Numbered from the stretch's first letter, positions 32,299 to 55,343 are shown. The stretch is DNA of 64,000 nt from a virus (IMGVR_UViG_3300037470_000856:1-64000); one strand, 5' to 3'. Numbers and translations are program-made. The notes: generated from the sequence alone by a model not told the origin.

Positions 32299-32391
32299 GA
32301 CTGTCTCCACAGGGTCGTGGAGCAAGTCGGTGGTTCGTTTTCACAGCGCAAGCGGGTTCACATTTGTGGAAACCCATCTTCATCTTCATGG

Positions 32392-32412
32392 TGACCGTCC
32401 CCGAGGGGAGGA
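32392..32412 (-). promoter_or_regulatory. Leader hairpin motif copy 1 (TCCTCCCCTCGGGGACGGTCA)
   Basis: Near-identical to 44310-44330 and 55322-55343. About 94 nt upstream of the chaperone start. Confidence 0.6.
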
Positions 32413-32504
32413 GGGAGAACAGCTCGATGAGCGATCTGTCGGTTCCCATTTTTTCACGTTCACATTCGCGTCTGTGACGCTCCACCGATTGCTCGGGTTG
32501 CACG

Positions 32505-32532
32505 AAAACCCCCCGCCCGAGAGCGCGGAGGC
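32505..32532 (-). terminator. Possible intrinsic terminator/attenuator after the tail tube gene
   Basis: Minus strand GCCTCCGC-loop-GCGGGGGG followed by TTTT. Confidence 0.4.
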
Positions 32533-32580
32533 ACTGTGGGGACAGGACGGCATAAACCACCCTACCCCCGGAATTCAGGG

Positions 32581-33372
32581 CTAGACCGTGATGAAGTCGG
32601 ACGCGGTGCGCTGGTCGGAGGCGTTGAAGCGCACCGAGCCCACCTGGCCGATGGTCGGGTCGTTGCCGGTGGCGAGGAACTCGCCGTACTCGGACGAGAA
32701 GTCGTGAACGTCACTGATCGTGACGTCGCCGGTCTCCATCAGCATCCCGGTGTCGCGGCTCAGGTTGGTGAGCGACCACGAGTTGAACCAGCAAGTCTCG
32801 TACAGCGTGATGATCGCGGTGTGACCGCGAAGATCCCCGGGGAAGTTGTTCGGGTCGTTGGTGACCTGCGGGTAGACGATCTCCTTGACGCCGCCGTCGA
32901 AGGTGCCGCCGCCGCCGTTGAACCCGACGCCCGACTGCCCGGTCAGGTCGAGGTCCGCGAGGGTCGAGAAGACGAGCTGCTGCTCGATGTCGAAGGGCCA
33001 CCGGTGGTGACGCAGCGAGCGCACGGGACCCGAGACTCCGCCCGCGTAGCCCGTGGCCTGCCAGAGATTGGCGAGATACAGGAGCGCGCGTTCGAAGCCG
33101 GCGGTCATCGCCTCCGTCACCGACGGGACGAGCTCGGCGATCATGTCGCCGAAGCCGATGCCCCGGAGGGTGTCAATCGTGCGCGTCTCGTTCGGCGTGA
33201 AACTCGAGAGGACGCCCATCTGAAACAGGAGGTTCGCGTCCGACCCGTAGGCGGGGGTCAAAAGGCGAACCTTCTGCGAGACGGCCGTGCGCGTCTGTGG
33301 GGAGGTGCCAAAGTCGTACAGGTAGCTCGATCCCTGTACGCCGTTGCTGGGGTTGATGTCCTTGTTGGCCAT
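32581..33372 (-). CDS. Tail tube protein (263 aa)
   Basis: RTIDTLRGIGFGD..ELVPSVT..FERALLY..WPFDIEQ..ITLYETCWFNSWS is tube-like. Strong AAGGAAGG RBS. Lies downstream of the sheath. Confidence 0.8.
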   Translation of the reverse strand: MANKDINPSNGVQGSSYLYDFGTSPQTRTAVSQKVRLLTPAYGSDANLLFQMGVLSSFTPNETRTIDTLRGIGFGDMIAELVPSVTEAMTAGFERALLYLANLWQATGYAGGVSGPVRSLRHHRWPFDIEQQLVFSTLADLDLTGQSGVGFNGGGGTFDGGVKEIVYPQVTNDPNNFPGDLRGHTAIITLYETCWFNSWSLTNLSRDTGMLMETGDVTISDVHDFSSEYGEFLATGNDPTIGQVGSVRFNASDQRTASDFITV

Positions 33373-33466
33373 GGTGCCTTCCTTGTTGGTCAGACGGCTA
33401 GCCCCAGCCGGGGCGACTCACCGCGCAAAGTGGAGACGAGACGGTCCCCTCTACAAGAGACGCCGC

Positions 33467-33640
33467 CTATAAACGGAGAAACGAAGAGAGCCACGCGCGG
33501 GCGACGCGCGAGGCGCTCCAGGCTAGAGGGTTGCCTTGGCGCATGGCCCAGCGTTTTGCGGGGTCCGACTCGGTCTCGAAACGCCGCGCGAGCTCGGTAG
33601 GCGGGACGTTCATGTAGGCCACATCGTGAAACTCGCTCAC
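33467..33640 (-). CDS. Small ORF (57 aa) carrying an RVAxxW motif
   Basis: Below the ORF-track cutoff. GTGA overlap with the AdoMetDC stop. Translates MSEFHDVAYMNVPPTELARRFETESDPAKRWAMRQGNPLAWSASRVARAWLSSFLRL. Confidence 0.45.
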   Translation of the reverse strand: MSEFHDVAYMNVPPTELARRFETESDPAKRWAMRQGNPLAWSASRVARAWLSSFLRL

Positions 33641-34098
33641 GGCCAGTGTCTCACAATCCAGTGGCTCGACCTGATTTTCACGTTGAAGCGAGATTGCAGG
33701 AACTCGTCCGTCGCCGACGAGCTGAACTCCTTGCAGGAGAACACATCGAGCGCGAAGCGGTGACGCAGGGGCCAGGTGTGGATGCTGAGATGGCTCGTGG
33801 TGTGGATGCTGAGATGGCTCGTGGTGTGGATGCTGAGATGGCTCGTGGTGATGATGCAGGTGCCCGTGACGCCGCCGTCGTCCTCGAGCGTGCCCCCCAT
33901 CTTGGCCGGCTCGAGCGGGACGGTCTTGAACGTAGGGGCGACGAGCACCTTCATGTCGAGGAGTTCTACGAGGTCGAGGAACACCTTCTTGAGGAACACG
34001 ACGTCCCCGAGCTGCCCCGACTTCTCGGGGTTCACGACGGCGTCGTAGGTAAGGTGCCAGCCGGCGTAGTTGTTGTCCATGGCGGCACTCGGGTTCAC
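33637..34098 (-). CDS. speD: S-adenosylmethionine decarboxylase proenzyme (SpeD/SpeH-type) with a triplicated cleavage motif
   Basis: GWHLTYD...GGVTGTCII-TSHLSIHTWP...ALDVFSC matches the pyruvoyl-dependent AdoMetDC pattern. Confidence 0.85.
   Translation of the reverse strand: MNPSAAMDNNYAGWHLTYDAVVNPEKSGQLGDVVFLKKVFLDLVELLDMKVLVAPTFKTVPLEPAKMGGTLEDDGGVTGTCIITTSHLSIHTTSHLSIHTTSHLSIHTWPLRHRFALDVFSCKEFSSSATDEFLQSRFNVKIRSSHWIVRHWP
33778..33849. repeat. Perfect 24-bp tandem repeat x3 (gtggatgctgagatggctcgtggt)
   Basis: Directly visible. Encodes TTSHLSIH three times. Confidence 0.95.
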
Positions 34099-34108
34099 GC
34101 CAACCGTT

Positions 34109-36703
34109 TCAAGCCCGGAACACCAGGAGCGGATCAGCTCTCGTGGCGCCGGATTTCAGCCTTCTCACCGGCATGTAGATGGTCGGCTCTACGCGGAAAC
34201 CAAGACGGGATGCTTCCCTGACCGCTTCGTCCGCGAGGACCACCCCATCGAGCGGCTTGGCGGGAAGGTTCAGGACGAGATGCGCCCCGAGCTTGAGACG
34301 GGCACGTGCCGTTTTCATCACCGGCACCAAGAACCCGGCGATCCACCTCGCAATGCTCCCGTACGATAATGCCTCGGCCGAGGCGCTCCCGTAGACCTCC
34401 AAGTCGAAGTAGGGAGGGGACGTGAAGACGAGGTCCAACGGACGACCAGGATCAAAAGTCTCCGCCCGGGCGCAAACAATCTCGCACCTGTCGACAACTT
34501 CAAGATCCCGGGCCAAGCGCAGGTTGCCCTCAACAGTCTGAGGTTCGACGTCGGTCCCGAGGTAAGTCCCCACCCCTGCAGCCATCGCCCCGAAAAGACG
34601 GCCACCATATCCTGCGCAAGGGTCCCACACGACGCCTCCGCGATCACCATAAGTTTGGCAGATGTACTTCGCCACCGCAGGCCGAAACACGGACGGCGTC
34701 CGGCACAGCATCTGGAGGGCCCGCAGCACGCGTGCTGGCGTCGTGGGGTGCCCCGCGTTGAGTTGCACTCGGACCGCGGCCCTAAGCCTGTCGTCGTCGT
34801 CCCATGCTTCCCGAACGCTACGCGCTTTCTTGTACCGGGCCTCGTAGCGATTCGGGAAGAAAGAGGCACACGCGATCGTGCCGCGCAAGGTGTACGGCCG
34901 CACGAATCCTTCCCCGTCAAGCCACACTTCCTGTTGACGCAACTTGGTGAACTCGGCCTTGGTCTTGGGTGACGGGAGGATATCAGGAAACCCTTGGGCC
35001 CTCAGCGTCTCCAGGATCTCCTCTACGTCCCGCACCTTGGCCTCTTCGCTCTTGTTGGCCCATAACGTGACATCGTTCCCAAGAAGTCTTTTCCAAAACC
35101 CTTGGTCGTGGATCGGATCGCTGTACCGCACGATTTTCACCGTGTACCCAATCTCCCGCGCGCGGGAGACCTTGAAGTCGTCAATCTCGCGGAGGCGCTC
35201 AAATTCTTCGTGGGTCTTGTGCCACGATTCGATGAAGTAAAAATGCTGCTCTCCGTGGGCCTCAATGATCAGGTTACGCGCCGGGAAATAGCCGTCAAAG
35301 TGAAATTTGCGCCCCGTTGCACCGTTCACAATTCTCGGGTCCGTCCACTCAGGTTCGTAGTGAACCCCCAAAAACGACGCCACCCCGTCCAGCACGGCCT
35401 TTTGCCAAGCGAGACGGCTCCGCGTTTTCAACCCGAGATCGGAACAGTTTCGGCGAATTTGCCACTGTGCGCAGCGGAAAGCCCTTGAAGCAGCAGCAGC
35501 GATGACTCGTCCTTTGTCATCCATGAAGGGACGGAGTTGCTCCGCCGTCAACACGAGTTTGTTGGTGGGGGGGAGCCGCTGTCCGGCTCGTAGTGCCGTC
35601 AGGGGGGCCTTCGGATGGTCCCGGCAATAACGTTCAAGGGTGTGCGCTGAACGGACGTGAGACGTGAGATTCTCCGCACGATGCCCGCACTCCCGGCACA
35701 TCACGAAGTCCTCCGGCTCGCTCTTTTCTCGCCACAGCACAAGGTCGTCCTCTGCCTTGCATTCCTCGCAGCGCAGATCGTGCAGTGAGCCCGCGAACAG
35801 AGACACCCGGACACCTTGTCCGCAGGTTGGACACGAAACCTCCTTGAGGGTCCCTTTCATGTAGTCGTTCGCTGCTCGGCCCTCTAACGAGCGCGCCAGT
35901 CGTGCCTGCTCAACCTTCTCAATGCGCCAGCGCACACCGGGCCACTTCGCCACGTAGACGGACGGAGTTGTCCTGTGCTCAGTCTTGAGGTGCTTCCACA
36001 AGTTCAGCGCACGATGTCCGCACTCCATGCAGACGACGTGGTTAATGCCCTCCTCGCCGAGTCGCTCCTGCTCACGCCGCTCACGCCATGCCCGGTGCTC
36101 GTCGTCTTTGGCGTGAGAAAAATGAGCGCCGAGTCCTCTCTGCCCTACGCACATCGTTCCGCACACGGGACAGGACGTGTCGGCTCCTCGATCCTTGAGG
36201 TCGCATGTCGTGCACAGAAACCTCGATCGCTTGGAGGCAGAGATGGCAGACACCTCCATCGGCTCCCCACATCCCTCACAGGGAACCTCGACGGTTCTGA
36301 TTTGTCTCGACTCCCTGGCGCGTGCCCGGTTGTTCTCAGTGGCTCTCACCGTCTGGAGTTCCCGTCCCCGCTCCCGAACCACATCACCGCCGTACACCTC
36401 CTCCCACCACGCCCGCACCTGCGTGTAGTGGACACCGAGGCGCTTCGCGACACCCTTCATCGGCTCACCCCTCTCAAAGGCCACGACGGCCTTGGCTTGA
36501 ACCGCAGAGTTCCCTGCGTTCCCCGTCTGCGCCTTGGCGAGTCCGCGAAGACGGTTGCCACGCTCTCGCACGGCATCACCGAACTCTTCCTTCCACACAC
36601 GGTAGACCCGATCACGACCCACGCCCACCCGCTTGGCCACGACGTTGGCAGCATCGTTGGAGCGGAAGGCGTCGAGGATCTGCGAGCGGACTTCAGGAGT
36701 CAC
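34109..36703 (-). CDS. HTH/zinc-finger + PD-(D/E)xK nuclease + amino-DNA-methyltransferase-like fusion (864 aa)
   Basis: Two HTH-like repeats and several CxxC/C2H2 fingers. FDGYF..LIIEAHGEQH nuclease motif, DPCAGYGGR SAM-binding motif and FTSPPY catalytic motif. Lower GC than its neighbours. Confidence 0.8.
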   Translation of the reverse strand: MTPEVRSQILDAFRSNDAANVVAKRVGVGRDRVYRVWKEEFGDAVRERGNRLRGLAKAQTGNAGNSAVQAKAVVAFERGEPMKGVAKRLGVHYTQVRAWWEEVYGGDVVRERGRELQTVRATENNRARARESRQIRTVEVPCEGCGEPMEVSAISASKRSRFLCTTCDLKDRGADTSCPVCGTMCVGQRGLGAHFSHAKDDEHRAWRERREQERLGEEGINHVVCMECGHRALNLWKHLKTEHRTTPSVYVAKWPGVRWRIEKVEQARLARSLEGRAANDYMKGTLKEVSCPTCGQGVRVSLFAGSLHDLRCEECKAEDDLVLWREKSEPEDFVMCRECGHRAENLTSHVRSAHTLERYCRDHPKAPLTALRAGQRLPPTNKLVLTAEQLRPFMDDKGRVIAAAASRAFRCAQWQIRRNCSDLGLKTRSRLAWQKAVLDGVASFLGVHYEPEWTDPRIVNGATGRKFHFDGYFPARNLIIEAHGEQHFYFIESWHKTHEEFERLREIDDFKVSRAREIGYTVKIVRYSDPIHDQGFWKRLLGNDVTLWANKSEEAKVRDVEEILETLRAQGFPDILPSPKTKAEFTKLRQQEVWLDGEGFVRPYTLRGTIACASFFPNRYEARYKKARSVREAWDDDDRLRAAVRVQLNAGHPTTPARVLRALQMLCRTPSVFRPAVAKYICQTYGDRGGVVWDPCAGYGGRLFGAMAAGVGTYLGTDVEPQTVEGNLRLARDLEVVDRCEIVCARAETFDPGRPLDLVFTSPPYFDLEVYGSASAEALSYGSIARWIAGFLVPVMKTARARLKLGAHLVLNLPAKPLDGVVLADEAVREASRLGFRVEPTIYMPVRRLKSGATRADPLLVFRA

Positions 36704-36704
36704 A

Positions 36705-36745: not shown

Positions 36746-36747
36746 GA

Positions 36748-39700
36748 TCAACCTCCTAGGTTGGAGCGGAGGTTGAAGGTTATAACGATGTATAAAAGTG
36801 GAAAGACGGGCTGGTAGAACGCCTCCACCTCGACGACCGTCGGGTCGTTGGTGGTGCGCGCCTGGATGCCGGTGAACGCCGTGATGATCTCGGCGTTCTT
36901 GAGCGCCTTCATCGTCGTGGCGAGCTGTCCCTCGATCTCGGACAGGACTCCCGGCAGGAACTTGATGCCGATGAACCTGTCGAGGTCGCGCCGCGCGGCC
37001 CTCTGCACCTCGTCCGCGATGGTGATCACGGTCGGGAGCTTCGTGAGGATGTTGCTGATGTCCGTCGTCAAACCCTGGCGGATGCGGATGACGGTGCCGC
37101 TCTGGTCGAGCACGGTGACACCCTGGACAGCCACCTGGTTCTGCTCCACCGCGTCGAGGTTGCGCTGGAGTTGGTCGAACCCGACGATGCGAGCTCGCGT
37201 CCACGGGGTCGCCACGTCGATGTTCGGCCGCGCCCGGTCACCCGCGACCGCGGCCGCGAGGTAGGTCCCGTCGACCAGGAACTGCTTGTCGTTGCCGAGC
37301 GCGTCCTGGATGGTGACGGTCACGATGTCCGGGTAGACCAGGCGGATGCGGGTGTTGTGGATCTGGTTGGCGATCCCGCCCACGTCGCTCGGCTGCGTCC
37401 CCGACGACACCCCGATGATGGCCGTCCGCTCGGAGCGGTACCGGATACTCGACTGGATGTCGCAGTGGTTCTTGAGAGCCAGGAACAGGTCGACGTCGTC
37501 GCCCTTGAGCGGGGTGATGGTGTCGAGCGTCCCGCCGCCCGGAAGCGGCCCGCGCAGGTCGTTGAGCGCATCAAGGTACGACGGTGTGCTGGCCTGGTTG
37601 CTGCCCGGGATCTTCGGCACCTGCTTGATGCCGAGGACCACCGCGCCGTTCAGGAAACTGAGGAACGCCGCGAGAGAGACCGGGTTGTCCGGGCTGATTT
37701 CACCGTAATTGCGCTCCACGGCCCGCTGGTTCGTGAACAGCATCGTCTCGAAGTCGGCCTCGGTCTTCGTGTAGTTGTAGGTCACGAAGTAGCTGTCGCC
37801 GACCGCCGGCTCCTGGCCACCGCTCTCGAAGGTCTCGACGATCGCGGTGTCCCCCTGCGGGATGGTCGACCCCTCGGTGTTGGCCACCGTGAGCTCGAGG
37901 CCCGGGATCGAGTTGGCCGGGAGGTTGGCGTCAGTGGTGACGAGTTTGCGCACCTCGAAGGTGAACCAGGCCCCGGCCCCGGTCGGGTAGTCCGCCCCGC
38001 CCTGACGCTCGAGGATCGTGAACACGAGCCCCGTCTTGGTGTCGCGGTAGGTCTGCCCGATGACGCCGTCCTGGCCCACGCCGTTGTTGAGACACGAGGT
38101 GTCCACCGAGCCCGACCCGTCGATCGGATCGGAGCTCGTGACGTAGAAGCCCTGGAAGCCGCTCTCGCCGGACGCTCCGTCGCCGGAGGCCACGTCGAGG
38201 CCGGTTCCCGTGAGCAGCCACGAGGCCGTGCTCGCGTTCAGGAACGAGATGTTCGAGGACGCCCCCAAGCCGACGATGTTGTTGGCCTGCGACTGAACGA
38301 ACAGGAACTCGTTGTTCGCCGAGTCCACCATCTTGCCCGCGAGGGCCTGGTCGGCGAAGAACGTGGTGTCCGGGCTCTGGTAGTCCAGGAGCGCCCCGTT
38401 GACTGTCGTGCTGTGGTGCATCATCAGCGCCGAGGCGACCTTCTCCACCTCGACCAGAGACCGCGCGGCCGTGGCCCCCTCGGAGAACCCGAGGACGTCG
38501 TTGGCGTTGCCGTCGTTGATCGTCACCGCGGAGCTGGTGTCGGACAGGCTCGAGACGAGGCGGATGCCCGCGCCCTCCTGCACGACCGAGTCGGCGGGCA
38601 ACCCCGCTCCGACGCACGCAGTCTGGATCTGACGCAACACCGTGTTCGGGCTCGTCACCGGGCCGAGCGGCACGAGCGCCTCTCCGGCCGCCGGGATCGC
38701 GGCTCCGGTTCCGTCCGTGACGACAACCGTCACCGGGGTCCCGTCGATGTTGAACTTGAACACGTTGTTGCGCGGGTTTAGGCCGCTCGCCCCGTAGAAC
38801 TGCACCGCGGGCTGACCGTCACGGTCGTCACCGTAGGTGCCCGAGGCGACCTGGCCGTCCTTGAACCCGACCTCGCCGAAGAGGCTGGCGGGGCGGATGG
38901 TCGCCTCGATGTCCGCCTGCCCGAAGGCCTTGGCCGACAGGCCGGTGAACGCGGAGGCGTTGGTCCCCTCGACGACCAGGGAGGTCTGCGCGACCTGGCT
39001 CTCGGGCCGGATTGACCCGGATCCCGGGACGACGCGGTTGCGCATGAGGATGCGGTCGTAGAGGAGGCGACCCGAGGAGCCGGCCACGGTGAACCGACGG
39101 GCGATGTCGCCGTCGATGACCTTGGTCTGCTCCTGGCTCGGAAGCGCGTCCGTGGACAGGCCCGCGAGCACCGCGAAGTCCTCGCCGACCGACGATGCGT
39201 CGATGAACTCGAATACGCCGCCGCCGAGGCCGGTGCCGCCCGTGAGGGTGGACGCCGACACGGGGAGACGCACCCCGCTGCTCGAGGACAGGTCGATGAA
39301 GTTGCCGCTCGGCCCGGGGACGGCCGCCGTGAGATCCACGGTGGATGATGTGCCCGAGGTGTTGTCGGCCGTGACGAGCGCGTCGAGCCCGTTGAGGGGG
39401 TCGGTGGTCGCCGTGACGATAGTCGTCGCGACGCCCACGTCGGTGAGGCCCCCGCCGAAGGTCGCTCCCGAGACGGGGAGGCGCACGCCGGGCGAACTCA
39501 TGAGCAGGACGCCGTTCGCCCCCACGCCCGGGATGTTCGCCCACACGGTGACCGTGGTGGACGTGCCACCCTCGTTGTTCGCCGTGAGGTACAGCGCCAG
39601 GCCGTTGCCGGGATCGTTGATCGCGGCGACGATAGAGGTGGCCACCGACAGGTTGGTACCGACGCCTCCCTGGAGGGTGAGGGCCGACATGAGCAGGCGA

Positions 39701-42700
39701 GTCGCGCTCGAGCTCGTGGTGTCGATGATGTTGCCCGCGTTTCCGGGGGTGACCGCGGTCATCGTGACCCCGCTGCCCACCGCCATGGCGGTGACCGTGA
39801 CGCTGATGCCGTTGCCGGCGTCGTTGATCGCCGCGGCGATGGAGGCCGCCACCGTGGTGTTGTCGCCCACGCCGCCGAGCAGCGTGCCGCCCGACAGGAC
39901 AATGCGCGCCGCCGCGGTGGTGCTGAGAGTGATGCCGTCGCCGACGATTCCCGGGGTGAACGCGTCGATGGTGACCACGTTCGAGGTGCCGCCGACGTTG
40001 CTCGCGACCACGAGGGTCAGGCCGTTGGCCAGGTCGGTGATGGCCGCCACGAGGCTCGTCGCCACCGAGATGTCGTCGCCCACGCCACCGAGCAGCGTGC
40101 CGCCCGACAAGACGAAGCGTCCCGCCGCGGTGGTGCTGAGGGTGATGAAGTTGCCGACGATTCCCGGGATGACCGCCGTGAGATTCACAGTGGTGCCCAC
40201 GACGACCGCGCTGACGTCGCCGTCGAACGAGTTCGCCACGTCGTTGATGGCCGCCGCGGCGTCCGTGGCCGCGGTCGCGTCGGTCCCGACGCCGCCCATG
40301 AGGGTGGCCGCGCCGAAGGTGAGTCGAACTGGCGCCGTGGAGACGGTGCTGATCGAGTCGCCCGCGACTCCGGGGGTGATGGCCCGGATGTCGACCACCG
40401 CCGAGGCGCCACCCGTGTTGTGGGCCTGCACGGTGCCCGTGAGTCCGTTGAGCGGGTCGAGGATCGCCGCGACGATGGCCGTCGCGGTGGCGATCTCGTC
40501 GCCCACGCCGCCGCCGAAGCCCCCGGTGGTGGTCACGGTGCCGTCCGAACTCATGTTCGTGACGACGTTGGCGAACGATCCGGGGACCGTCCAGGGCAGC
40601 GTCACGTCCGAGGGCCCAGGCCCCACCGCCGCGGACATAAACGTCGAGAAGGAGTTGGCCGGGTCGTTGAGGGCCGCCGCGATCTCGGCGGCGATGGCCG
40701 CCGTGGTGCCGAGCGTCTCGTCGTAGTCGTTCGCGCCCGGAGTGCGGGGGCCGCCCGCGGGAGAGAGCGGGAATGGACCGCCGTTGGCGCCACCCGAATC
40801 GATTGTAATCGTGGCGGAGGCCGGCGCGGCCATCACAATAAGCGTGTCGATCGCCTGGATGCCGGCGTTGAAATTGAGGCCGCCGGGGGTGGTGACGTCG
40901 TCAGCCGTGAGGGCGATGCCCGCGATGATGAGGGTGTCGCCGTACAAGACACCCGTGCTTGGGCCGAGCGAGTCGGCCACGACGGTCAGCATGCCAAGGG
41001 ACCGCGTGCCCGCGTCGAAGTCGTCCGCGCCTGGGGTGCGGGCGCCCTCGACCGGGGTCAGCACGTTGCCGTTGATCGCGGTGGTGTCCGCCGCGACGAC
41101 GGGCCACGGGCCGGCCGAGACCGCCCGCACGCCCATCGTCATGAAGTCACCGGTGGCCGCGGTACCGACGTTGAAGTCCATGCCGCCCGGGGTCAGCGTG
41201 TTGCTGGCCGTCAGGGTGACCGGACCTCCACCCACCACCGAGGTGTCGATGGTGATCGTGTCGCCGTACTGGACGCCGGTGAGCGTCGCCGAACCGGTCG
41301 AGCGGGTGCCCTCGTCGAAGTTGAGACCGCCCGGGGTCTGCGCACCCAGGGCCGTCAGGGTGATGCCGTCGACGGTGACCGTGTCGTTCGGGATCGGGCC
41401 CGAGACGGTGAGGGTGCCCGTCGCCTGGGTGCCCTCGTTGAAATTAATGCCGCCCGGGGTCTGAGCGCCGGTCGCCGTGATGAGCACGGGACCGCCGCCG
41501 AGCACGGTGGTGTCGATGGTGAAGGTGTCACCCGGTTCTACGCTCATCGGGATGAGCGTCCCTCGAGCCTGGCCCGTGTCGTAGTTCAGGCCGCCCGCGG
41601 TGACGCCCAGCTCGCCCGTGAGAGTGATGCCCCCGATGGTGATGGTGTCGCCCACGATCGATCCGACGTTGGTCACGGTGCCCGTGGCGAAGGTGCCGAG
41701 GTCCGTGTCCGCACCGGTGAAGGTGAAGCGCATCTGGCCGTCCGCGTTCGCGCTGCAGACGATGTCGATGCCGTCGAAAGAGGCCGGGAGGGCCGCGATC
41801 GCGGTGTCGAGCGCCGAGTTGACCGCGGCCGCCATGGTGGAGGGCGACAGGTAGATTCCCGGGGCGATAGTCGCCGTGACGGGGCCCGTCGAGCCGTTGG
41901 TGACGCCCATGTAGTTGAAGACGAGCTGGTCGTACTCGCCCGCCGTCATGACGGTCGCCCCGAGGAACCGCGTCGTGCCGTCCAGGAAGGGAGCGTTGGC
42001 GACGAGTTTGGCGTCGGCGTTGATGGCCTCGACGTAGGCGTCGGCGTCGACGCCCGTCTGCGAGGGCACCGTCACGGTGAGGACCACTCCATCCACGGTC
42101 ATCGCCACGGTGTCATTGATGCCCGAGAGGATGTCGTAGGTCGTCTTACCCGAGTCGTCGGTGTAGGCGATCTCGTCGCCGAGCAGGCTCGCGCTGAACC
42201 CGAGACCCTGCACCCCGTGCGGGGCGGACAGGTCGATGCCCGCAGCTCCGCCCGCCAGCACCGCGCTGTCCACGAGGAAACGCGCGCGGTCGGACTCGCC
42301 GGTCACGAAGGCGTAAGGACCCGCGCCATCGACCGTGAACTTGGCGATGGTGGCGTCCTCGTCCGCGAAGGTGACGGTGACCGTCTCCTCGACGGGACCG
42401 TCCGTGCCACCCTCGAAGTGCACGTCCGGCGTGAGCTCGGAGCCCGAGGGGAACTGCACGGTGACGCCGGTCATGGCCGGCCCCTTCACGCCGAAGTTCG
42501 GCGTGAAAATCGGGTTTCCGTTCGAGTCGAACAGGAAGTAGTTGCCGATGCCCGAGGGTCCGGAGGTCTCGACCGTGACGGTGTACTCCTCGTCGACGAG
42601 GATGTTGTAGTAGAAGGTCGCCCACACATCGGCGCCCACGGGCACCGGGTCCTTGAGGGTGATCTCCGTGCCGTTGACCGCCGTGACGGCGACCGCTCCG

Positions 42701-44190
42701 CGCTGGACAGCGTCCTGGAGGCCAAAGCCCCAGTACGCCTTCACCAGGTTAGGGTTGTTGGTCGGGAGGTCGATGCGGTTGTTCGAGAGCGACAGGAAGA
42801 CGTTCTGGCCGAGCGGGTTGTTGCGCCCGTTGCCCGTGGTGGGCTGAGTCGGCAGCGTGAACTTCGTCCGGTCCTCCACCGGAGGTGTCACGGCATCGTT
42901 GACGACGGGCTCCGTCGGCGCCAGAAACCAGCGGTTGTCGACGAGCAGACCGCTGATCTGAGTCGGGCCGAAGGGCGGAGCACCGGGCGTGGTGACGCCC
43001 GGGTTCACGAGGAACGCGGTGCCCCAGACGATGAGGTCGTCCTTGAGGACGAAGTCGGCGTCTTCGATGAAGTCGTTGTTGCCGGGGACGATGCCGCAGC
43101 GCAGGACCTCGGTGACGTTGATGTTCGCGAGGTAGTCGAACGTGTCCTGCCAGGAATTGAAGAAGTACTGGATCGTAACACTCTCGCCGACGCCCGGGGC
43201 GAAGGGGAGCACGACCGCGCGGTTCTGGCCGTCGACCTCGGTCGGGATGACCTGCGTGCCGTCGACGCGGACGGTCACCTTCGAGGTATCCATCGTGGTG
43301 ATGCCGCCGTTGGTGCCGTCCACGATCGGCCCGTTGAAGACGTAGAACGTCCTGTTGCGGTTCGTGTCCTGGCCGTTGGTGAACCCGAGCACCACGTTGA
43401 CGGTGCCCGCGAGGATGCGAATGGCTCGGTCCGCCACAAGACGCACGGCGGTGAGCCCGAAGTTGTTCGTGTAGGTCGAGGCCACCAGGGAAGTGGCCGA
43501 CGCAGCACCGTTGATGAGGGAGACGACCGTGGCCGCGCTCACGCTGCCCGTGGGGAAGGTGACCGAGATCTCCTGGTTCTGGTCGTCGTCGACCCGGAAG
43601 TTGAACTCGTTGGTGTCGACGGTGAACTCGTAAGTGTTCCCGATGGCGCCGTCGAGCACGGCCGACTGAGGCGTGACCTGGTCCGACACGGTGTCGGTGA
43701 TCTGCGTGTCCGTGCGCTTGAAGAAGTAAGTGACGCGGACGTCGTCGCCCAGAACCGGGGCCGTGCTGATCTCGATGACACCGATGTTGGCGCGCGCAAC
43801 GCTCAGGACTACGTCGGGCTGTCCGTTGATCGTCACGAAGATCGAACTGGGATCGGTGGCGATGGTGCCGCTCCCGTCACCGTTGGTGATCGGGTAGTTG
43901 CGGACCTGGATGCGCCGGCGCTCTCCGTTGAAGTTGCCGAGCGTGACCTCGCCCGTCTGGCTGATGCTCACGACGGCGCGACCGGTCTCGTCCTCCTGGG
44001 GGACCTGCTGGTCCACCGACGAGCTCGAGCCACGGAGGACCTCAAGGCTCTGCTGCTGGAGAAGTTCGTTGCCCGTCCCGATCATGACCGGGATGCGCAC
44101 ACCTGCGAGGACACCCGAGACCGGGTTGTCGAATTTTGTGCGGGTGTAGACGCCAGGGGGGCTGTAAATGGTACCCGGAAAATTTGCCAC
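36748..44190 (-). CDS. Contractile tail sheath protein with very large domain insertions (2480 aa)
   Basis: N-terminal YSPPGVYT. Sheath-type C-terminus (RIRLVYP..YLAAAVAG..IRIRQGLTT..FYQPVFPLLYIVITF). AAGGAG RBS. Confidence 0.9.
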   Translation of the reverse strand: MANFPGTIYSPPGVYTRTKFDNPVSGVLAGVRIPVMIGTGNELLQQQSLEVLRGSSSSVDQQVPQEDETGRAVVSISQTGEVTLGNFNGERRRIQVRNYPITNGDGSGTIATDPSSIFVTINGQPDVVLSVARANIGVIEISTAPVLGDDVRVTYFFKRTDTQITDTVSDQVTPQSAVLDGAIGNTYEFTVDTNEFNFRVDDDQNQEISVTFPTGSVSAATVVSLINGAASATSLVASTYTNNFGLTAVRLVADRAIRILAGTVNVVLGFTNGQDTNRNRTFYVFNGPIVDGTNGGITTMDTSKVTVRVDGTQVIPTEVDGQNRAVVLPFAPGVGESVTIQYFFNSWQDTFDYLANINVTEVLRCGIVPGNNDFIEDADFVLKDDLIVWGTAFLVNPGVTTPGAPPFGPTQISGLLVDNRWFLAPTEPVVNDAVTPPVEDRTKFTLPTQPTTGNGRNNPLGQNVFLSLSNNRIDLPTNNPNLVKAYWGFGLQDAVQRGAVAVTAVNGTEITLKDPVPVGADVWATFYYNILVDEEYTVTVETSGPSGIGNYFLFDSNGNPIFTPNFGVKGPAMTGVTVQFPSGSELTPDVHFEGGTDGPVEETVTVTFADEDATIAKFTVDGAGPYAFVTGESDRARFLVDSAVLAGGAAGIDLSAPHGVQGLGFSASLLGDEIAYTDDSGKTTYDILSGINDTVAMTVDGVVLTVTVPSQTGVDADAYVEAINADAKLVANAPFLDGTTRFLGATVMTAGEYDQLVFNYMGVTNGSTGPVTATIAPGIYLSPSTMAAAVNSALDTAIAALPASFDGIDIVCSANADGQMRFTFTGADTDLGTFATGTVTNVGSIVGDTITIGGITLTGELGVTAGGLNYDTGQARGTLIPMSVEPGDTFTIDTTVLGGGPVLITATGAQTPGGINFNEGTQATGTLTVSGPIPNDTVTVDGITLTALGAQTPGGLNFDEGTRSTGSATLTGVQYGDTITIDTSVVGGGPVTLTASNTLTPGGMDFNVGTAATGDFMTMGVRAVSAGPWPVVAADTTAINGNVLTPVEGARTPGADDFDAGTRSLGMLTVVADSLGPSTGVLYGDTLIIAGIALTADDVTTPGGLNFNAGIQAIDTLIVMAAPASATITIDSGGANGGPFPLSPAGGPRTPGANDYDETLGTTAAIAAEIAAALNDPANSFSTFMSAAVGPGPSDVTLPWTVPGSFANVVTNMSSDGTVTTTGGFGGGVGDEIATATAIVAAILDPLNGLTGTVQAHNTGGASAVVDIRAITPGVAGDSISTVSTAPVRLTFGAATLMGGVGTDATAATDAAAAINDVANSFDGDVSAVVVGTTVNLTAVIPGIVGNFITLSTTAAGRFVLSGGTLLGGVGDDISVATSLVAAITDLANGLTLVVASNVGGTSNVVTIDAFTPGIVGDGITLSTTAAARIVLSGGTLLGGVGDNTTVAASIAAAINDAGNGISVTVTAMAVGSGVTMTAVTPGNAGNIIDTTSSSATRLLMSALTLQGGVGTNLSVATSIVAAINDPGNGLALYLTANNEGGTSTTVTVWANIPGVGANGVLLMSSPGVRLPVSGATFGGGLTDVGVATTIVTATTDPLNGLDALVTADNTSGTSSTVDLTAAVPGPSGNFIDLSSSSGVRLPVSASTLTGGTGLGGGVFEFIDASSVGEDFAVLAGLSTDALPSQEQTKVIDGDIARRFTVAGSSGRLLYDRILMRNRVVPGSGSIRPESQVAQTSLVVEGTNASAFTGLSAKAFGQADIEATIRPASLFGEVGFKDGQVASGTYGDDRDGQPAVQFYGASGLNPRNNVFKFNIDGTPVTVVVTDGTGAAIPAAGEALVPLGPVTSPNTVLRQIQTACVGAGLPADSVVQEGAGIRLVSSLSDTSSAVTINDGNANDVLGFSEGATAARSLVEVEKVASALMMHHSTTVNGALLDYQSPDTTFFADQALAGKMVDSANNEFLFVQSQANNIVGLGASSNISFLNASTASWLLTGTGLDVASGDGASGESGFQGFYVTSSDPIDGSGSVDTSCLNNGVGQDGVIGQTYRDTKTGLVFTILERQGGADYPTGAGAWFTFEVRKLVTTDANLPANSIPGLELTVANTEGSTIPQGDTAIVETFESGGQEPAVGDSYFVTYNYTKTEADFETMLFTNQRAVERNYGEISPDNPVSLAAFLSFLNGAVVLGIKQVPKIPGSNQASTPSYLDALNDLRGPLPGGGTLDTITPLKGDDVDLFLALKNHCDIQSSIRYRSERTAIIGVSSGTQPSDVGGIANQIHNTRIRLVYPDIVTVTIQDALGNDKQFLVDGTYLAAAVAGDRARPNIDVATPWTRARIVGFDQLQRNLDAVEQNQVAVQGVTVLDQSGTVIRIRQGLTTDISNILTKLPTVITIADEVQRAARRDLDRFIGIKFLPGVLSEIEGQLATTMKALKNAEIITAFTGIQARTTNDPTVVEVEAFYQPVFPLLYIVITFNLRSNLGG
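39229..41694 (-). repeat. Seven N-half repeats followed by seven C-half repeats inside the sheath (nested domains)
   Basis: A-type xATGT..GDTxTI..TPGGxNFxxG occurs 7 times, then B-type xAxxIxAAINDxxN..PG..GN.I....GGVG occurs 7 times. Confidence 0.85.
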
Positions 44191-44309
44191 GGTTTCAACT
44201 CCTTACGAGCCTTCTTGAAAGCCCCGGTTGCAGGTCGCTGGTTGCGCGCTCGAGGCACGCTTGAGTTCACATGCGAGGTCCCATATCGGTTCGTCTATCG
44301 GTTTCCATC

Positions 44310-44330
44310 TGGCCATCCCCGAGGGGAGGA
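44310..44330 (-). promoter_or_regulatory. Leader hairpin motif copy 2 (TCCTCCCCTCGGGGATGGCCA)
   Basis: In the ~230-nt leader of the sheath gene. Matches copies 1 and 3. Confidence 0.6.
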
Positions 44331-44422
44331 AGGGTTTGAGTCCCGCGCTCGGCGGGGTCTGTGTCGATCTCGGTCTGTCTGGTCTGGCTACGTTTGGGTC
44401 CCCCTCGAGGAGGGGGCCGGGG

Positions 44423-44905
44423 TTAGCGACCGCTCCCTGTCGCAGGAGGCTGCTTCGACGCGTCTTTTCGGCGCGCGTCCTTCCAATCCTGAATGCGGTG
44501 CATCGCCTCCTGGTTCTGGAGACGAGCCTTCTTGGCGGCCACGCGCTCTTGCTCGGACATGACGAGATACTCCCCGTCATCGAGCCGGCTAAGATGGTCG
44601 CCGGTGGTGTTGTTGGCGGCGATCACGCGCCGCTTGTAGTCCTGCCGCCGCTGGAACTCGGCCAGGCTCTGCGCCGCGCTCCTGCCGATCACCACGTCAA
44701 CGTCGTGATCGACCGAGGTTGCCCCCGTGTTCTGCGGGGCCGGGCTGCCGGGCCGGTGGGCGAATTTGGAACCCGCCGTCGAGAGCTGGCGAAACGCACT
44801 CTCGCCGCACCGCCTGCACGAAAGGGACTCCTTCGCGCCCTGGGTGGATTGCATCGCCCCGAACTGTGATCCGCAGCTCTGGCACTGGTACTTGAAAATT
44901 GGCAA
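44423..44905 (-). CDS. FmdB-family zinc-ribbon protein (160 aa)
   Basis: MPIFKYQCQSCG...CRRCG N-terminal pattern. Confidence 0.75.
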   Translation of the reverse strand: MPIFKYQCQSCGSQFGAMQSTQGAKESLSCRRCGESAFRQLSTAGSKFAHRPGSPAPQNTGATSVDHDVDVVIGRSAAQSLAEFQRRQDYKRRVIAANNTTGDHLSRLDDGEYLVMSEQERVAAKKARLQNQEAMHRIQDWKDARRKDASKQPPATGSGR

Positions 44906-44926: not shown

Positions 44927-44942
44927 GGGCGCCGATATAGGC
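44927..44942 (-). promoter_or_regulatory. Candidate phage late promoter (GCCTATATCGGCGCCC)
   Basis: 15/16 match to 568-583. Intergenic. Confidence 0.5.
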
Positions 44943-46835: not shown

Positions 46836-46837
46836 AG

Positions 46838-46874: not shown

Positions 46875-46883
46875 ATAGGACGA

Positions 46884-47939: not shown

Positions 47940-48949
47940 TCGTCCTCGTATTCCTGCAAGGCCTGGACGAGCAGGCCCCGCGCGACCGCGTCGAGCGGCT
48001 CACGGGCCGCGCGAACCTCCGACACCTCGATCGGAAACTTCCTCTTCTTCTGCTCGAAGACCTGCTGGAAGAACTCAAGGAAGCCCCCGGCCTTGCTCGT
48101 GCCGCCCGAGATGACAATCGGGATCGGGTTGGGCAGTGCGAACTTGTTCTGGATCTTGACGAACTCCTTGGCGACGTTGTCGAGCGCGTACTCGATCAAC
48201 GCCTTGTAGTACACGCAGAGCGCCTCCTCGTCGCGGCTCTGCGGGTGCACGAGATTGAGCCCCTTCTCCTTGAGAGAGCACATGCGGGCCTGCGTCGAGC
48301 CAACAGACTTCGCCGCGCCCGCGTCGATCCAGTCTCCTCCGCGCGCCACCGAGAAACTCAGCCCCTCGATGGTGTTGATGGCGAGTGTCACGTTCGTCAT
48401 GCCCGACCCGAACGAGAAGGCGATGCCGCTGAACACATCCTTCGCGCACTCGGAGTAGATGATGGCCAGCGCCTCGTTGCTCGGGAAGGGACGGTATCCA
48501 CACTCGCTCACGATACGCTCGAGGACGCCGCGGTGGTACACAATGTCGCGAGACGGGTCGTCGACGGGAGCCGCGGGCACGGAGAAGTAACAGATCTCGT
48601 TCTCCTCCTTCGGCTCGCCCAGGACGTGTCGCACGAGGACGCCGAGGATTTCGAGCGCGTCGATCTCCCCGGCCGCGACAAGCCCCGACTGGAGCGGACG
48701 ACGGACCTCCCTGCTCATCATGTTCGCCATGTCGTAGGCGGCGTCCCCCACGACGATGAGGTCGTTCTCCTTCTCGATGTAGTTCACGCCCGACAGCCGC
48801 AGCATCTTGCGGTTCTCGGCAGGCAGGTCGAGGAAGGCGTCACGGATACGGTTCGTGACTACGCCCTTCTTGGTGCGCCTCGCGGCCACGATGTTCATCG
48901 TGCCCATGTCGAGGCCAACGCCCAGGGTCAAAACTTCTTCTTCGGTCAT
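47936..48949 (-). CDS. Actin-like ATPase (MreB/MamK/ParM superfamily, 337 aa)
   Basis: GLDMGT (phosphate 1), NEALA (connect 1), SFGSGMT (phosphate 2), GGDWID, ISGGTS (adenosine), AVARG (connect 2). Confidence 0.85.
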   Translation of the reverse strand: MTEEEVLTLGVGLDMGTMNIVAARRTKKGVVTNRIRDAFLDLPAENRKMLRLSGVNYIEKENDLIVVGDAAYDMANMMSREVRRPLQSGLVAAGEIDALEILGVLVRHVLGEPKEENEICYFSVPAAPVDDPSRDIVYHRGVLERIVSECGYRPFPSNEALAIIYSECAKDVFSGIAFSFGSGMTNVTLAINTIEGLSFSVARGGDWIDAGAAKSVGSTQARMCSLKEKGLNLVHPQSRDEEALCVYYKALIEYALDNVAKEFVKIQNKFALPNPIPIVISGGTSKAGGFLEFFQQVFEQKKRKFPIEVSEVRAAREPLDAVARGLLVQALQEYEDE

Positions 48950-48952
48950 CGG

Positions 48953-50238: not shown

Positions 50239-50251
50239 TCACCATTCCACC

Positions 50252-51763: not shown

Positions 51764-51776
51764 CCGTTACCTGTCA

Positions 51777-53169: not shown

Positions 53170-53206
53170 GCGAGAACTGCTCTGCCTGCGGGTCTCTATA
53201 GGCTCC

Positions 53207-53569: not shown

Positions 53570-53643
53570 TTTGGGCCTCGCGGCGGGCTAGGGGTCACCT
53601 ACGGGTCGTGATAGGAGGGTCACCGGAGGCAAGTTCGTGAAAA

Positions 53644-54017
53644 TTAGGACGGGGTGTCCGAGTGCGTCGAGCAGCCCGTGTAGTCGTGGATCACGTGCCT
53701 GAGGAAGACCGAGTCGGTGCTCCCCGTGTACGTGTTGCTCGTGTCGGTCTGCTGGGCCTCCATCGCCGACTTCGATCCGCCGTAGTACATCACGTAGGCT
53801 GGCGACGTGTTGATGGTTTCGGACCCGCAGTACAGACCTCGGGACAGACCCTGCGTGGTCGCGTAGTCGTGCCACGGCTCGAAAGGACAAGGCTCGAAGG
53901 ACGTAGCCAGGTGTGCTCCGATCGCCATGCCGCCGCCAGGACCATCTCGAGGAACTCGAGGTTCCCGTCCGTGTTGATGCCCGCGACGTAGGCCAGATCC
54001 CCCGGGTGACGCGCCAT
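53644..54017 (-). pseudogene. Small gene split by a single-base frameshift near 53940 (error or real)
   Basis: MARHPGDLAYVAGINTDGNLEFLEMV and GGGMAIGAHLATSF... are both GC3-rich and join in frame if one C is added to GTCCT. Confidence 0.55.
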
Positions 54018-54065
54018 CGGGACCCGATCCAAAAGAGCAAAGAAATCAACACTCTGTGAGAAACC

Positions 54066-54971
54066 TCACACAAAGCTCCTAGGTGAAAGAACCCCCCGAC
54101 CGACATTGGGGCCGAAGCTAGAGCGCACGCCGAAGCCGAACTTCGGCTGCTGCAGACCACGGATGAACTTGACGGTGCGAGCCTTGGCTTCGGCGGCCTT
54201 GTCCTGCTGTCCCTCGGCGTTCTGCTTGAGGCTCTCGTACTTGCTCGACTTCTCGATGCTGAGGCTGATGCCCCCGATCGAGTAGTCGAACTCGTCCGCG
54301 ACCCAGTTGACGCTCAGAGCGAACAGGGCATGCACCGCCGCGCCCCACAGGATGAAGGTGCGCCACTCAGGCTTCTGCTGACAGAGCATGTTGAGCGTGC
54401 TGATACCCGTGGCCGGAGGCAGCGAGTTGAACCAATCGAGTGACATCTGGAGGTAACACAACAGTTCATAGTCCTCCCACAGGTAGCCGAAGACGCGGTT
54501 GAACTGCTTGATCTCCCCCTCCTGCTCGGGAGGACGGAAGTGGTAGTTGCGGTCCGGGTTGTTGTCCCGGAGCATCACGCGGAGTTTGTCGACCAGGCCT
54601 GCCTCGCAGGTGGACAGGATAGGCTGACCCATCACCTGCGACTCGGGGTTGGTCACGCCGAACTCCTGGACAACGACCTGCTCCTCGCCGCCGACGGTCT
54701 TCGTGAACGTCCAGCGAATGCGATAGTCGCCCCCGGACGCTCCCGGGGGCACAAGGAGCGCGGCGTAGTACTCGCCGATGGACGGGTTGACCGGGGTGCG
54801 CTCGGCGGGTCCGATCAGCACCTCGATACCCGGCTCCCCCATGCTCACGTCCACGAAGTAGATCGCGTAGGAGATCGTCGCGGCGTTGCACGGCACGCCG
54901 AGCTCGTCCACGAGGAAGATGGAGAGGTCATTACGACCGAGTTCCGTGCCGACGTTGAAACATACGGGCAC
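54066..54971 (-). CDS. Head-tail adaptor/neck protein (301 aa)
   Basis: LVDKLRVMLRD..LQMSLDWFN..DYSIGGISLSIEKS resembles SPP1 gp15/T4 gp13-type adaptors. N-terminal Ig-like region. Confidence 0.6.
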   Translation of the reverse strand: MPVCFNVGTELGRNDLSIFLVDELGVPCNAATISYAIYFVDVSMGEPGIEVLIGPAERTPVNPSIGEYYAALLVPPGASGGDYRIRWTFTKTVGGEEQVVVQEFGVTNPESQVMGQPILSTCEAGLVDKLRVMLRDNNPDRNYHFRPPEQEGEIKQFNRVFGYLWEDYELLCYLQMSLDWFNSLPPATGISTLNMLCQQKPEWRTFILWGAAVHALFALSVNWVADEFDYSIGGISLSIEKSSKYESLKQNAEGQQDKAAEAKARTVKFIRGLQQPKFGFGVRSSFGPNVGRGVLSPRSFV

Positions 54972-54974
54972 GGC

Positions 54975-55037
54975 TCACATCCTCACGTCCTGGAGCCCGA
55001 AGACGTCGGCGGGGTCGAGGTCGAGGCTGCTCCTCAT
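54975..55037 (-). CDS. Possible 20-aa micro-ORF (MRSSLDLDPADVFGLQDVRM)
   Basis: GAGGAG RBS, GC3-rich codons, and it fills the gap between two genes. Confidence 0.35.
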   Translation of the reverse strand: MRSSLDLDPADVFGLQDVRM

Positions 55038-55044
55038 GCGCTCC

Positions 55045-55302
55045 TCAGTCCTCGTGTGTCAGCCCCTTCATCACCCGAATCTCGTCCACGTAGGTCAGGG
55101 CGGCCACCTTGCTGGTGCGGTTGTAGTACTGCTGCTTGAGTTCGCGGATGGACACGGCGCCGCCGTCCTCGAAGAGGAAGGACACCCGCCCCCCGTCGCG
55201 CGCGGTGCCGGCGAACGTAACACCCGCCACCTTGAGATAGGCCGCGTAATACAGGTCGCTCGTCCTGTAGTGCCTATTCTTCTGTTGTACCTGGTTCTCC
55301 AT
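55045..55302 (-). CDS. Small basic protein (85 aa), DUF5659-like, candidate nucleic-acid-binding regulator
   Basis: YRTSDLYYAAYLKVAG...RVSFLF pattern (family recalled from memory, not searched). Leader carries hairpin motif copy 3. Confidence 0.55.
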   Translation of the reverse strand: MENQVQQKNRHYRTSDLYYAAYLKVAGVTFAGTARDGGRVSFLFEDGGAVSIRELKQQYYNRTSKVAALTYVDEIRVMKGLTHED

Positions 55303-55321
55303 CGTGTTCGTCTCCGTTTCC

Positions 55322-55343
55322 TGACCATCCCCGGCGGGGAGGA
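55322..55343 (-). promoter_or_regulatory. Leader hairpin motif copy 3 (TCCTCCCCGCCGGGGATGGTCA)
   Basis: About 20 nt upstream of ATG 55302. Same stem and flanks as copies 1 and 2, different loop. Confidence 0.6.

Follow-up and report, generated by a model that had tools for sequence, protein, structure and literature searches.

A conserved hairpin in three tail-module leaders of huge phages resembles an undescribed gene-control signal

The coat-protein operators of phages MS2 and PP7, and the sites used by RegA and gp32 of phage T4, are short hairpins with a single bulged base, in which structure and a few fixed bases are what matters. The boxB hairpins of lambda nut, on which N acts, and the put sites of HK022 belong to long phage operons; each genome has two or three of them, placed in leaders at variable distance from the first gene. 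In phage Mu, the small zinc-finger protein Com binds a hairpin in the mom leader, opening structure that hides the ribosome site. The highly expressed messages of Escherichia coli ompA and T7 gene 10, meanwhile, carry stable stem-loops close to their 5' ends, which act as stabilizers. The element described here has a point of likeness to each of these systems.

Next to nothing is known of how huge phages control their genes, since for nearly all of them metagenomes are the only source. Here we describe a hairpin that recurs ahead of three genes in the tail module of one such phage and its relatives, and which looks like a gene-control signal not previously described. It would be a small, sharply defined RNA signal, set before the same three units of the tail module in phages that span a wide evolutionary range.

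Three hairpin copies in tail-module leaders

The window is a stretch of 64,000 nt taken from a viral record (IMGVR_UViG_3300037470_000856) of 141,029 bp, itself a fragment of about 31% of a huge phage genome. The pattern TCCTCCCC-N2-3-GGGGAYGGYCA matches at three places, each time on the minus strand and in a non-coding gap (Table 1); since the called genes here all lie on the minus strand, the three copies are in the sense orientation. A scan of the whole record yielded no fourth full copy, and looser versions of the core at 6767-6780, 51083 and 136797 fall within coding sequence and lack the 3' half. The initial annotation had placed the motif in these three long leaders, folded it as a CC stem with a bulged pyrimidine and GG, and pointed to purine-rich tracts following it. 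These particulars stand: the matches are exact, with none in 100 dinucleotide shuffles, copies 1 and 3, folded in context, take the order CC, U-A plus C-G stem, bulged Y, GG as their minimum-energy structure, and the tracts can be read directly in the three sequences. Rfam offered no match, as cmscan of positions 32000-56000 with permissive filters gave one sub-threshold, snoRNA-like chance match elsewhere.

Table 1. Features of the three leaders and the genes around them, in window coordinates.
Feature	Position	Strand	Remarks
504-aa tail-module protein ("chaperone" in the initial annotation)	30784..32298	-	ATG 32298; N-terminal 190 aa 27-53% conserved in relatives
504-aa-gene leader (class C)	32299..32580	-	long, conserved, structured; holds copy 1
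Helix CUCCAC/GUGGAG	32305..32322	-	sequesters Shine-Dalgarno of 504-aa gene
Hairpin copy 1, CC base to GG base	32395..32411	-	motif including flanks 32392-32412; ATG 32298 is 96 nt downstream
Intrinsic-terminator-like hairpin and T run	32510..32531	-	from terminator scan; about 100 nt 5' of copy 1; kept in relatives
2480-aa sheath-like protein	36748..44190	-	GTG 44190; N-terminus 49-85% conserved in relatives
Sheath-like gene leader (class B)	44191..44422	-	holds copy 2
Hairpin copy 2	44313..44329	-	full motif 44310-44330; GTG 44190 is 122 nt downstream
GC hairpin	44399..44419	-	directly past zinc-ribbon gene; copy 2 lies about 70 nt further 3'
160-aa FmdB-type zinc-ribbon protein	44423..44905	-	conserved directly 5' of sheath leader; alternative candidate binder
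CCTATA promoter-like motif	44936..44941	-	upstream of zinc-ribbon gene; signal class separate from hairpin
85-aa DUF5659 protein	55045..55302	-	ATG 55302; PF18903; candidate binder
DUF5659-gene leader (class A)	55303..55394	-	holds copy 3
Hairpin copy 3	55325..55342	-	full motif 55322-55343; 22 nt before ATG 55302, Shine-Dalgarno GGAG between
Terminator-like GC hairpin	55356..55383	-	ends 13 nt 5' of copy 3

Conservation and covariation of the hairpin

The record has no detected nucleotide similarity to deposited phages, and a volactin-like protein is its only link to two uncultured huge phages; the phages of this lineage are likewise uncultivated. Related IMG/VR records could nevertheless be compared leader by leader. 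As MAFFT alignments of the hairpin placed length differences at the 5' end, models were built from equal-length copies, and a four-copy model matched the same three leaders in 12 related records. For example, a relative of 619 kb (92% complete) holds exactly three matches above 20 bits, the next best scoring 16.2. A structural descriptor (CC, a stem of at least 4 pairs, a loop of 3-9 nt, the returning stem, Y, GG) was found in 35 of 72 distinct DUF5659 leaders, where dinucleotide shuffles gave 2.6 +/- 1.6 and the opposite strand gave 6. Among sheath leaders it occurred in 7 of 16 in a first set (0.7 in shuffles) and in 22 of 55 in a further set (3.35 +/- 1.7 shuffled, 4 in coding sequence taken as control). 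Of 8 leaders ahead of 504-aa homologues, proteins of 27-53% identity, 7 carried it (0.3 in shuffles), the protein alignment being too divergent for a scan for further leaders of this kind. Among distant relatives, roughly one in two DUF5659 and sheath leaders does not fit the strict descriptor. In a scan of bacterial species genomes, DUF5659 turned up on a single 2-kb MAG contig, with a leader devoid of the hairpin.

Far from being absent from orthologous leaders or occurring at background frequency in coding DNA, the hairpin is kept ahead of all three genes in many relatives and is restricted to three places per genome. A chance origin of the motif is out, given the empty shuffles together with its retention in orthologous leaders.

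The architecture is strict at the base and loose above it. All 41 distinct copies have C-G at both pairs of the C-C/G-G base. Above this base a single C or U bulges on the 3' strand, usually topped by a U-A pair. Upper stems have 3-11 pairs and loops 2-9 nt; both vary while pairing is kept, with no loop consensus. Over the 41 copies, in an alignment that was fitted to the structure of the model and so favours pairing, 98.4% of cells are paired, compared with 89.3% when shuffled and 23-69% with slid partners; both sides have changed in 4 of 6 stem pairs. Double-sided changes number 19 cells, a value that 0 of 500 shuffles reached (mean 2.4). The kept stem and variable loop noticed at the outset are matched by compensatory stem changes and a free loop in relatives. 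Upper stems of distant copies have quite different sequences. Within the close clade, the 5' arm stays pyrimidine-rich and the 3' arm purine-rich, so part of the constraint there is on sequence, beyond pairing.

Outside the stem, a single-stranded YYARAY tail follows on the 3' side; of the 41 copies, 37 have A at +3 and 36 have A at +5. This tail has no U run and a terminator scan flags none of the three copies, so that the hairpin does not have the make-up of an intrinsic terminator. Of internal mismatch-type pairs, G.U is present in 8 leaders whereas A.C is present in none, a pattern indicative of sense-strand RNA. Finally, in a single lineage (G016), the bulge is missing from all three copies together, as would be expected if the sites have a common partner. 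We consider it very probable, on these comparative grounds, that the motif, a real hairpin kept ahead of the same three genes, is a conserved functional RNA structure.

Neighbouring genes and candidate partners

The 85-aa protein matches Pfam PF18903 at 33.9 bits (cut-off 23.6), its residues 9-81 aligning to positions 1-72 of the 75-position profile, and its neighbours in a protein atlas are all DUF5659. Few small proteins of this huge-phage lineage are as well conserved as DUF5659; identity among relatives is 58-78%, with invariant Tyr, Lys and Arg residues. The predicted structure (pLDDT 84) has the order b-a-b-b-a-a. Foldseek against the PDB gave E values above 0.8 and no informative solved fold, a wide VIA-align search gave mixed alpha/beta domains at Z <=3.9, and a PDB profile search found nothing. 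BFVD matches were confined to other uncharacterised or DUF5659 phage proteins, and a full-text literature search on DUF5659 was likewise empty. The identity of 58-78% extends to relatives without a recognisable hairpin in their leaders, so hairpin binding cannot be the sole role of the protein. In DUF5659 leaders the gap between hairpin and start codon has a median of 25.5 nt and is mostly 17-33 nt, and in relatives a terminator-like hairpin stronger than that of the window abuts the motif.

The sheath label of the initial annotation has a single support. The C-terminal 499 aa of the 2480-aa ORF resemble sheath clusters by language-model features (0.96), whereas searches of the ORF against Pfam, PHROGs and PDB sequences, including Phage_sheath_1 and Phage_sheath_1C, were silent. 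The chaperone label of the 504-aa protein could not be upheld, gene order being its sole support. The long leader of this gene is itself a candidate second structured RNA. The helix at the Shine-Dalgarno site recurs in distant relatives with other sequences (by eye, unscored), and RNAalifold closed a structure over the leaders of the five close relatives, whose sequences are too alike to show more than a little covariation; the long-range helices of that structure are not relied on.

A promoter-like motif, CCTATA, marks other gene starts as well, and in some relatives lies 6-27 nt 5' of the hairpin, placing the hairpin inside the transcript. No sigma-70-like promoter was found near the motif copies. 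A search for a T7-like RNA polymerase (PF00940) as the reader of CCTATA gave no match in the record and two relatives, with control genomes equally blank, so that the negative carries little weight, and the 619-kb relative gave one weak sigma-like match.

Proposed mechanism, alternatives and known systems

We propose that the hairpin is transcribed in the three 5' leaders of the tail module as a cis-acting RNA, and that one trans-acting protein, most likely phage-encoded, docks on it in all three. Docking would couple the DUF5659 unit, the sheath unit and the unit starting with the 504-aa protein. To the reading of the hairpin as a docking site of one shared protein coupling these units we assign a probability of roughly 0.55, judging from sequence. 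In the DUF5659 leader, where the hairpin lies just 5' of the Shine-Dalgarno, the bound protein would act on translation initiation; with DUF5659 as the binder, this would amount to autoregulation. For the sheath and 504-aa leaders, action would instead have to go through leader folding, transcript stability or read-through. The hairpin there lies 122 and 96 nt from the respective starts in the window and 41-221 nt in relatives, and in two relatives a homing-endonuclease-like gene between hairpin and sheath start raises the distance to about 1 kb, so simple ribosome-site blocking does not fit. Together, the unequal distances and the gene insertion leave no single simple mechanism for all three sites. 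The initial annotation's RNA operator holds as a structured sense-strand element kept in orthologous leaders, while ribosome blocking in the style of RegA or MS2 suits the DUF5659 leader only (22 nt, compared with 96 and 122 nt).

DUF5659 is a plausible binder, though we rate it less likely than not, and the FmdB-type zinc-ribbon protein is an alternative candidate. The fullest version of the proposal, in which DUF5659 reads the C-C/G-G base and the bulged pyrimidine, represses its own translation, sets the output of the sheath and of the 504-aa-gene unit, and so founds a new family of RNA-hairpin-binding regulators, we regard as unlikely when all its parts are taken together. On that version, tail assembly would be under a self-contained post-transcriptional circuit across phages of 0.4-0.6 Mb.

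It is also conceivable, though rather improbable, that the hairpin is a nut-like read-through signal, its RNA loading a factor onto RNA polymerase, or acting directly, so that the terminators of very long operons are passed. Every copy heads a unit, 3' of a terminator-like hairpin, and the units are long, with a sheath gene of 7.4 kb and about 32 kb after copy 1. The varying distance to the first gene, which tolerates the insertion of about 1 kb, the presence of just three copies per genome and, in some relatives, a position few nucleotides past the promoter-like motif all agree with such a role. However, boxB is read through its loop, and here the loop is unconserved; no boxA-like partner or N-like protein, as in lambda nut, was noticed on unsystematic inspection, and such a role does not call for a spacing as tight as the 17-33 nt ahead of the DUF5659 start codon.

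We give a similarly small chance to a protein-independent stability or processing element, whereby the polycistron would be cleaved between the terminator-like hairpin and the motif, and the hairpin would mark or protect the downstream 5' end, giving neighbouring genes different levels. The sheath product is required in far larger amount than that of its upstream neighbour, which counts in favour of this explanation, as do the frequent UUCG-type stable loops among the copies and the order of DUF5659 leaders, in which a 3' hairpin and a short U-rich spacer precede the motif hairpin. Such an element would nevertheless have no need of the invariant C-C/G-G base, the always-pyrimidine bulge and the conserved ARA tail, and three sites in a genome of more than 600 kb are odd for a general stabiliser.

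A DNA-level site, whether promoter or operator and possibly an extruded hairpin promoter as read by the N4 virion RNA polymerase, appears very improbable. Its core is an inverted repeat, no sigma-70-like promoter lies close by, and in the DUF5659 leader of the window the upstream hairpin lies so near the motif that a separate promoter would have little space. Nonetheless, stem and loop lengths vary with pairing kept, which a dimeric DNA binder would not tolerate, and a distinct promoter-like motif exists, sometimes 5' of the hairpin. N4-type hairpin promoters, which are read in single-stranded form, combine a stem of 5-7 bp with a loop of 3 nt whose central base is a fixed purine; the loops of 2-9 nt found here, with G.U tolerated and A.C not, depart from that format and argue against a DNA site. 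Least credible is a short leader ORF whose ribosome-binding site would be the purine-rich 3' arm, masked by the C-rich arm: an AUG lies 5-7 nt past the hairpin in copies 1 and 2 and several relatives, and in four close relatives the ORF in the 504-aa-gene leader closes at a common UGA, but the AUG is unconserved (at most 15 of 41 copies, with ACG in its place in two sheath-leader copies), the window's own ORF in this leader does not share the frame of that UGA, and the arms of distant copies are not Shine-Dalgarno-like.

For the shared-protein reading, the two small conserved proteins are the obvious candidate partners, and the question is approachable without culturing the phage. Its answer could give Pfam DUF5659 a first function or exclude one.

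How, then, does the shared-protein reading sit among described systems? As with the repressors of MS2, PP7 and T4, one copy of the hairpin adjoins the ribosome site of a small phage protein, in keeping with autoregulation. In the MS2 and PP7 operators, however, it is a purine that bulges, on the 5' strand, and the loop is conserved, whereas here a pyrimidine is bulged on the 3' strand and the loop is free. Placement at a ribosome-binding site, as in MS2 and PP7, describes the DUF5659 leader and neither of the other two, in which 96-122 nt, and in relatives up to 1 kb, separate hairpin and start codon. Nor does the carrier, a huge dsDNA phage, have a coat-like or RegA-like protein. In lambda boxB the N peptide reads a conserved GNRA-like pentaloop, which caps a 5-bp stem, while in the present hairpin the fixed parts are the stem base and the bulge. 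The ompA and T7 gene 10 stabilisers need no fixed bases or bulge, both of which are kept here together with the tail, at three sites per genome; the position of the hairpin just after a promoter-like motif in some relatives is nonetheless reminiscent of them. With Mu Com/mom there is no relation of sequence or family, the targets are three instead of one, and the hairpin and the sequestering helix lie about 70 nt apart. Even so, a zinc-ribbon gene adjoins one of the three leaders and a Shine-Dalgarno-sequestering helix lies in another, and in these two respects the locus recalls the Com/mom arrangement.

The hairpin copies and their genes

The record whose first 64 kb form the window comprises 141,029 bp at 64.5% G+C; CheckV puts its completeness at ~31%, so that the whole phage genome would measure some 0.45 Mb. 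Codon-position G+C places practically all genes on the minus strand. The bulged-hairpin pattern reported in the initial annotation occurs here exactly three times and not once in shuffled sequence, with no further full copy across the whole 141,029-bp record, and each copy does lie, as claimed, within one of the few real non-coding gaps. The gene labels call for more reserve. While the 85-aa protein is a clear Pfam DUF5659 member, the "sheath" label of the 2480-aa protein extends as far as its C-terminal 499 residues, which a language model finds sheath-like, and "chaperone" for the 504-aa protein goes no further than gene order.

Coordinates of the hairpin copies, accompanying leader elements and other genes of the region (positions along the record)
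Feature	Position	Strand	Setting
Hairpin copy 1	32392-32412	minus	96 nt 5' of ATG, 504-aa ORF
Hairpin copy 2	44310-44330	minus	122 nt 5' of GTG, 2480-aa ORF
Hairpin copy 3	55322-55343	minus	22 nt 5' of ATG, 85-aa ORF
Hairpin with T run	32510-32531		5' of copy 1; conserved in relatives
GC hairpin	~44399-44419		5' of copy 2
GC hairpin	55356-55383		5' of copy 3; equivalents in relatives much stronger
CCTATA sites, window	577, 44936, 53197, 57829	minus
CCTATA sites, record	65531, 84671, 84714, 137561	minus
504-aa gene leader	32299-32580		282 nt
AUGGRAACCGAYAGA element	44294-44308		3' of hairpin, sheath leader
AUGGRAACCGAYAGA element	32435-32449		5' of hairpin, 504-aa gene leader
HNH-methyltransferase fusion	34109-36703		between sheath and next tail genes
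337-aa protein	47936-48949		Pfam Volactin, E = 9.6e-74
3642-aa ORF	4524-15452		tail and neck region
1872-aa ORF	18477-24095		tail and neck region
1222-aa ORF	59045-62713		tail and neck region

Elsewhere in the window, the three very large ORFs have almost no family matches. The 337-aa protein, assigned to an actin-fold family whose name is taken from haloarchaea, shares 64% identity with part of an uncultured huge phage of 485 kb.

Conservation and anatomy of the hairpin

Scanning IMG/VR with the exact pattern yielded two true orthologous matches, which fall respectively in the leader of a DUF5659 gene and that of a 504-aa gene. Among 32 IMG/VR loci with DUF5659 homologues, all high-G+C relatives carry the hairpin, flanked 5' by a terminator-like GC hairpin and 3' by the Shine-Dalgarno site. 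The arms co-vary in these DUF5659 leaders—an extra pair, U-A for C-G, C-G runs that vary from four to six pairs—and loop size ranges over 2-8 nt. The check proposed at the outset, a covariance model, was built from four copies, and in 12 related records its matches fall in these same leaders, three in number. Protein searches extended the comparison to the sheath and 504-aa homologues of more divergent huge phages, A+T-rich ones included, and the hairpin recurs in their leaders with quite different upper stems. Public data were found to contain 172 DUF5659 loci and 199 sheath loci.

A structural descriptor (CC, a stem of at least four pairs with at most one G.U, a loop of 3-9 nt, the returning stem strand, Y, GG) captures this wider set. 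It is found in 35 of 72 distinct DUF5659 leaders, where dinucleotide shuffles give 2.6 +/- 1.6 and the opposite strand 6; in seven of eight 504-aa gene leaders against 0.3; and in 7/16 sheath leaders against 0.7, with further sheath leaders contributing 22 of 55 (3.35 +/- 1.7 expected, and 4 in a coding control). A second, broader model returns exactly three matches above 19 bits in the 141,029-bp record. In a 619-kb relative of 92% completeness just three exceed 20 bits and the fourth-best match scores 16.2, indicating that the set of hairpins is small and fixed.

Anatomy was tabulated over 41 distinct copies in an alignment that was fitted to the model's structure and so leans towards pairing; neither the descriptor counts nor the raw sequences depend on this alignment. 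Paired cells amount to 98.4%, against 89.3% in shuffles and 23-69% with slid partners; four of the six pairs have changed on both sides, and 19 cells are altered on both sides versus 2.4 in shuffles. The two pairs at the foot of the stem are C-G in every copy, and the unpaired 3'-strand base is always a pyrimidine (C in 21, U in 20). The pair above this bulge is U-A in 31 copies, a U precedes the hairpin in 32, and the tail, YYARAY, keeps A at two fixed places (37 and 36 copies). Folded as single sequences, copies 1 and 3 adopt the bulged hairpin; copy 2 is instead predicted to pair with a GC palindrome resembling it ~70 nt upstream, and we give that fold no weight.

Leader context

All three copies lie 3' of a terminator-like hairpin, a setting in which a nut-like read-through signal might be entertained, although we consider this rather unlikely: the hairpin departs from nut elements in form, as discussed below. 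No sigma-70-like promoter was found near any of the three copies. The record contains 11 instances of CCTATA with A, T or G as the next base, most of them intergenic and in sense orientation; they make up a candidate class of phage promoters separate from sigma-70. The copy at 44936 stands ahead of the gene for a zinc-ribbon protein that precedes the sheath leader. In several distant relatives CCTATA is found 5' of the hairpin, 6-27 nt away in DUF5659 leaders and ~25 nt away in sheath leaders. If CCTATA is a promoter, the hairpin would sit within the transcript, near the 5' end in those relatives and, in the present record, inside a longer transcript.

Spacing to the start codon divides the leaders. 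In DUF5659 leaders the gap, which contains an A/C-rich linker and the Shine-Dalgarno site, is tightly held (median 25.5 nt, mostly 17-33 nt); in sheath and 504-aa gene leaders it spans 41-221 nt. Two relatives even accommodate a ~1 kb homing-endonuclease-like ORF between hairpin and sheath start with the hairpin intact; this insert (loci L165 and L166 of related records G008 and G009) carries repeated NUMOD-like motifs.

The 504-aa gene leader is conserved almost throughout, and its 3' end forms a helix hiding the Shine-Dalgarno site. By eye, and unscored, distant relatives place a helix of other sequence at the same position. The segment 32285-32425 gives z = -2.5, and the leader may constitute a leader RNA in its own right, not described before. 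Its layout also includes the terminator-like hairpin, a 7-nt long-range complement and a small hairpin whose triloop varies. A second shared element of ~15 nt, AUGGRAACCGAYAGA, occurs in the sheath and 504-aa gene leaders and recurs in close relatives, with a shorter form 3' of copy 3.

A proposed shared docking site and its possible partners

A fixed stem base, bulge and tail beneath a free upper stem and loop are the signature of a protein reading the foot of a helix, and three sites per genome, unchanged in location among widely divergent phages, point to one shared partner. In one relative, G016, the bulge is paired off in all three copies (L020, L171, L160) by an added 5' G opposite the pyrimidine; this concerted change at three unlinked sites fits a shared partner, as a single case. 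We therefore favor, with a probability of about 0.55, the reading that the hairpin is an RNA docking site through which a shared protein would couple three tail-module units. A hairpin that serves stability or processing and lacks a dedicated partner would not need the fixed helix foot, and appears as improbable as the nut-like signal. A DNA-level site is very unlikely: among stems of at least five pairs, eight leaders contain one internal G.U and none one internal A.C, which is a prediction of sense-strand RNA folding and not of a cruciform or double-stranded DNA site. That the hairpin masks a leader-ORF ribosome site is scarcely credible.

Operator-type translational control, as originally envisaged, survives in part: the spacing of the DUF5659 copy suits initiation control, but the geometry of the other two copies does not. 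A protein bound to the hairpin would control translation initiation in the DUF5659 leader, and would have to act through leader folding, stability or read-through in the sheath and 504-aa gene leaders. DUF5659 itself, the binder first nominated, is possible but doubtful. It is a reasonable choice because its own leader is one of the three hairpin places and alone among them has the start codon at an operator-like distance, because the protein is small and, by our count, slightly basic, and because invariant Tyr, Lys and Arg residues are kept. Against it, the fold search was uninformative and the protein is highly conserved even where no hairpin is recognisable. The other obvious candidate is the 160-aa FmdB-type zinc-ribbon protein conserved beside the sheath leader.

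Rfam holds no match for the hairpin, and our literature search found no work on it or on DUF5659. The element would work like phage operator and nut hairpins yet belongs to none of them, differing in its 3'-strand bulge, free loop and lack of a U run; we would classify it as a new family of cis-regulatory RNA motifs in huge phages.
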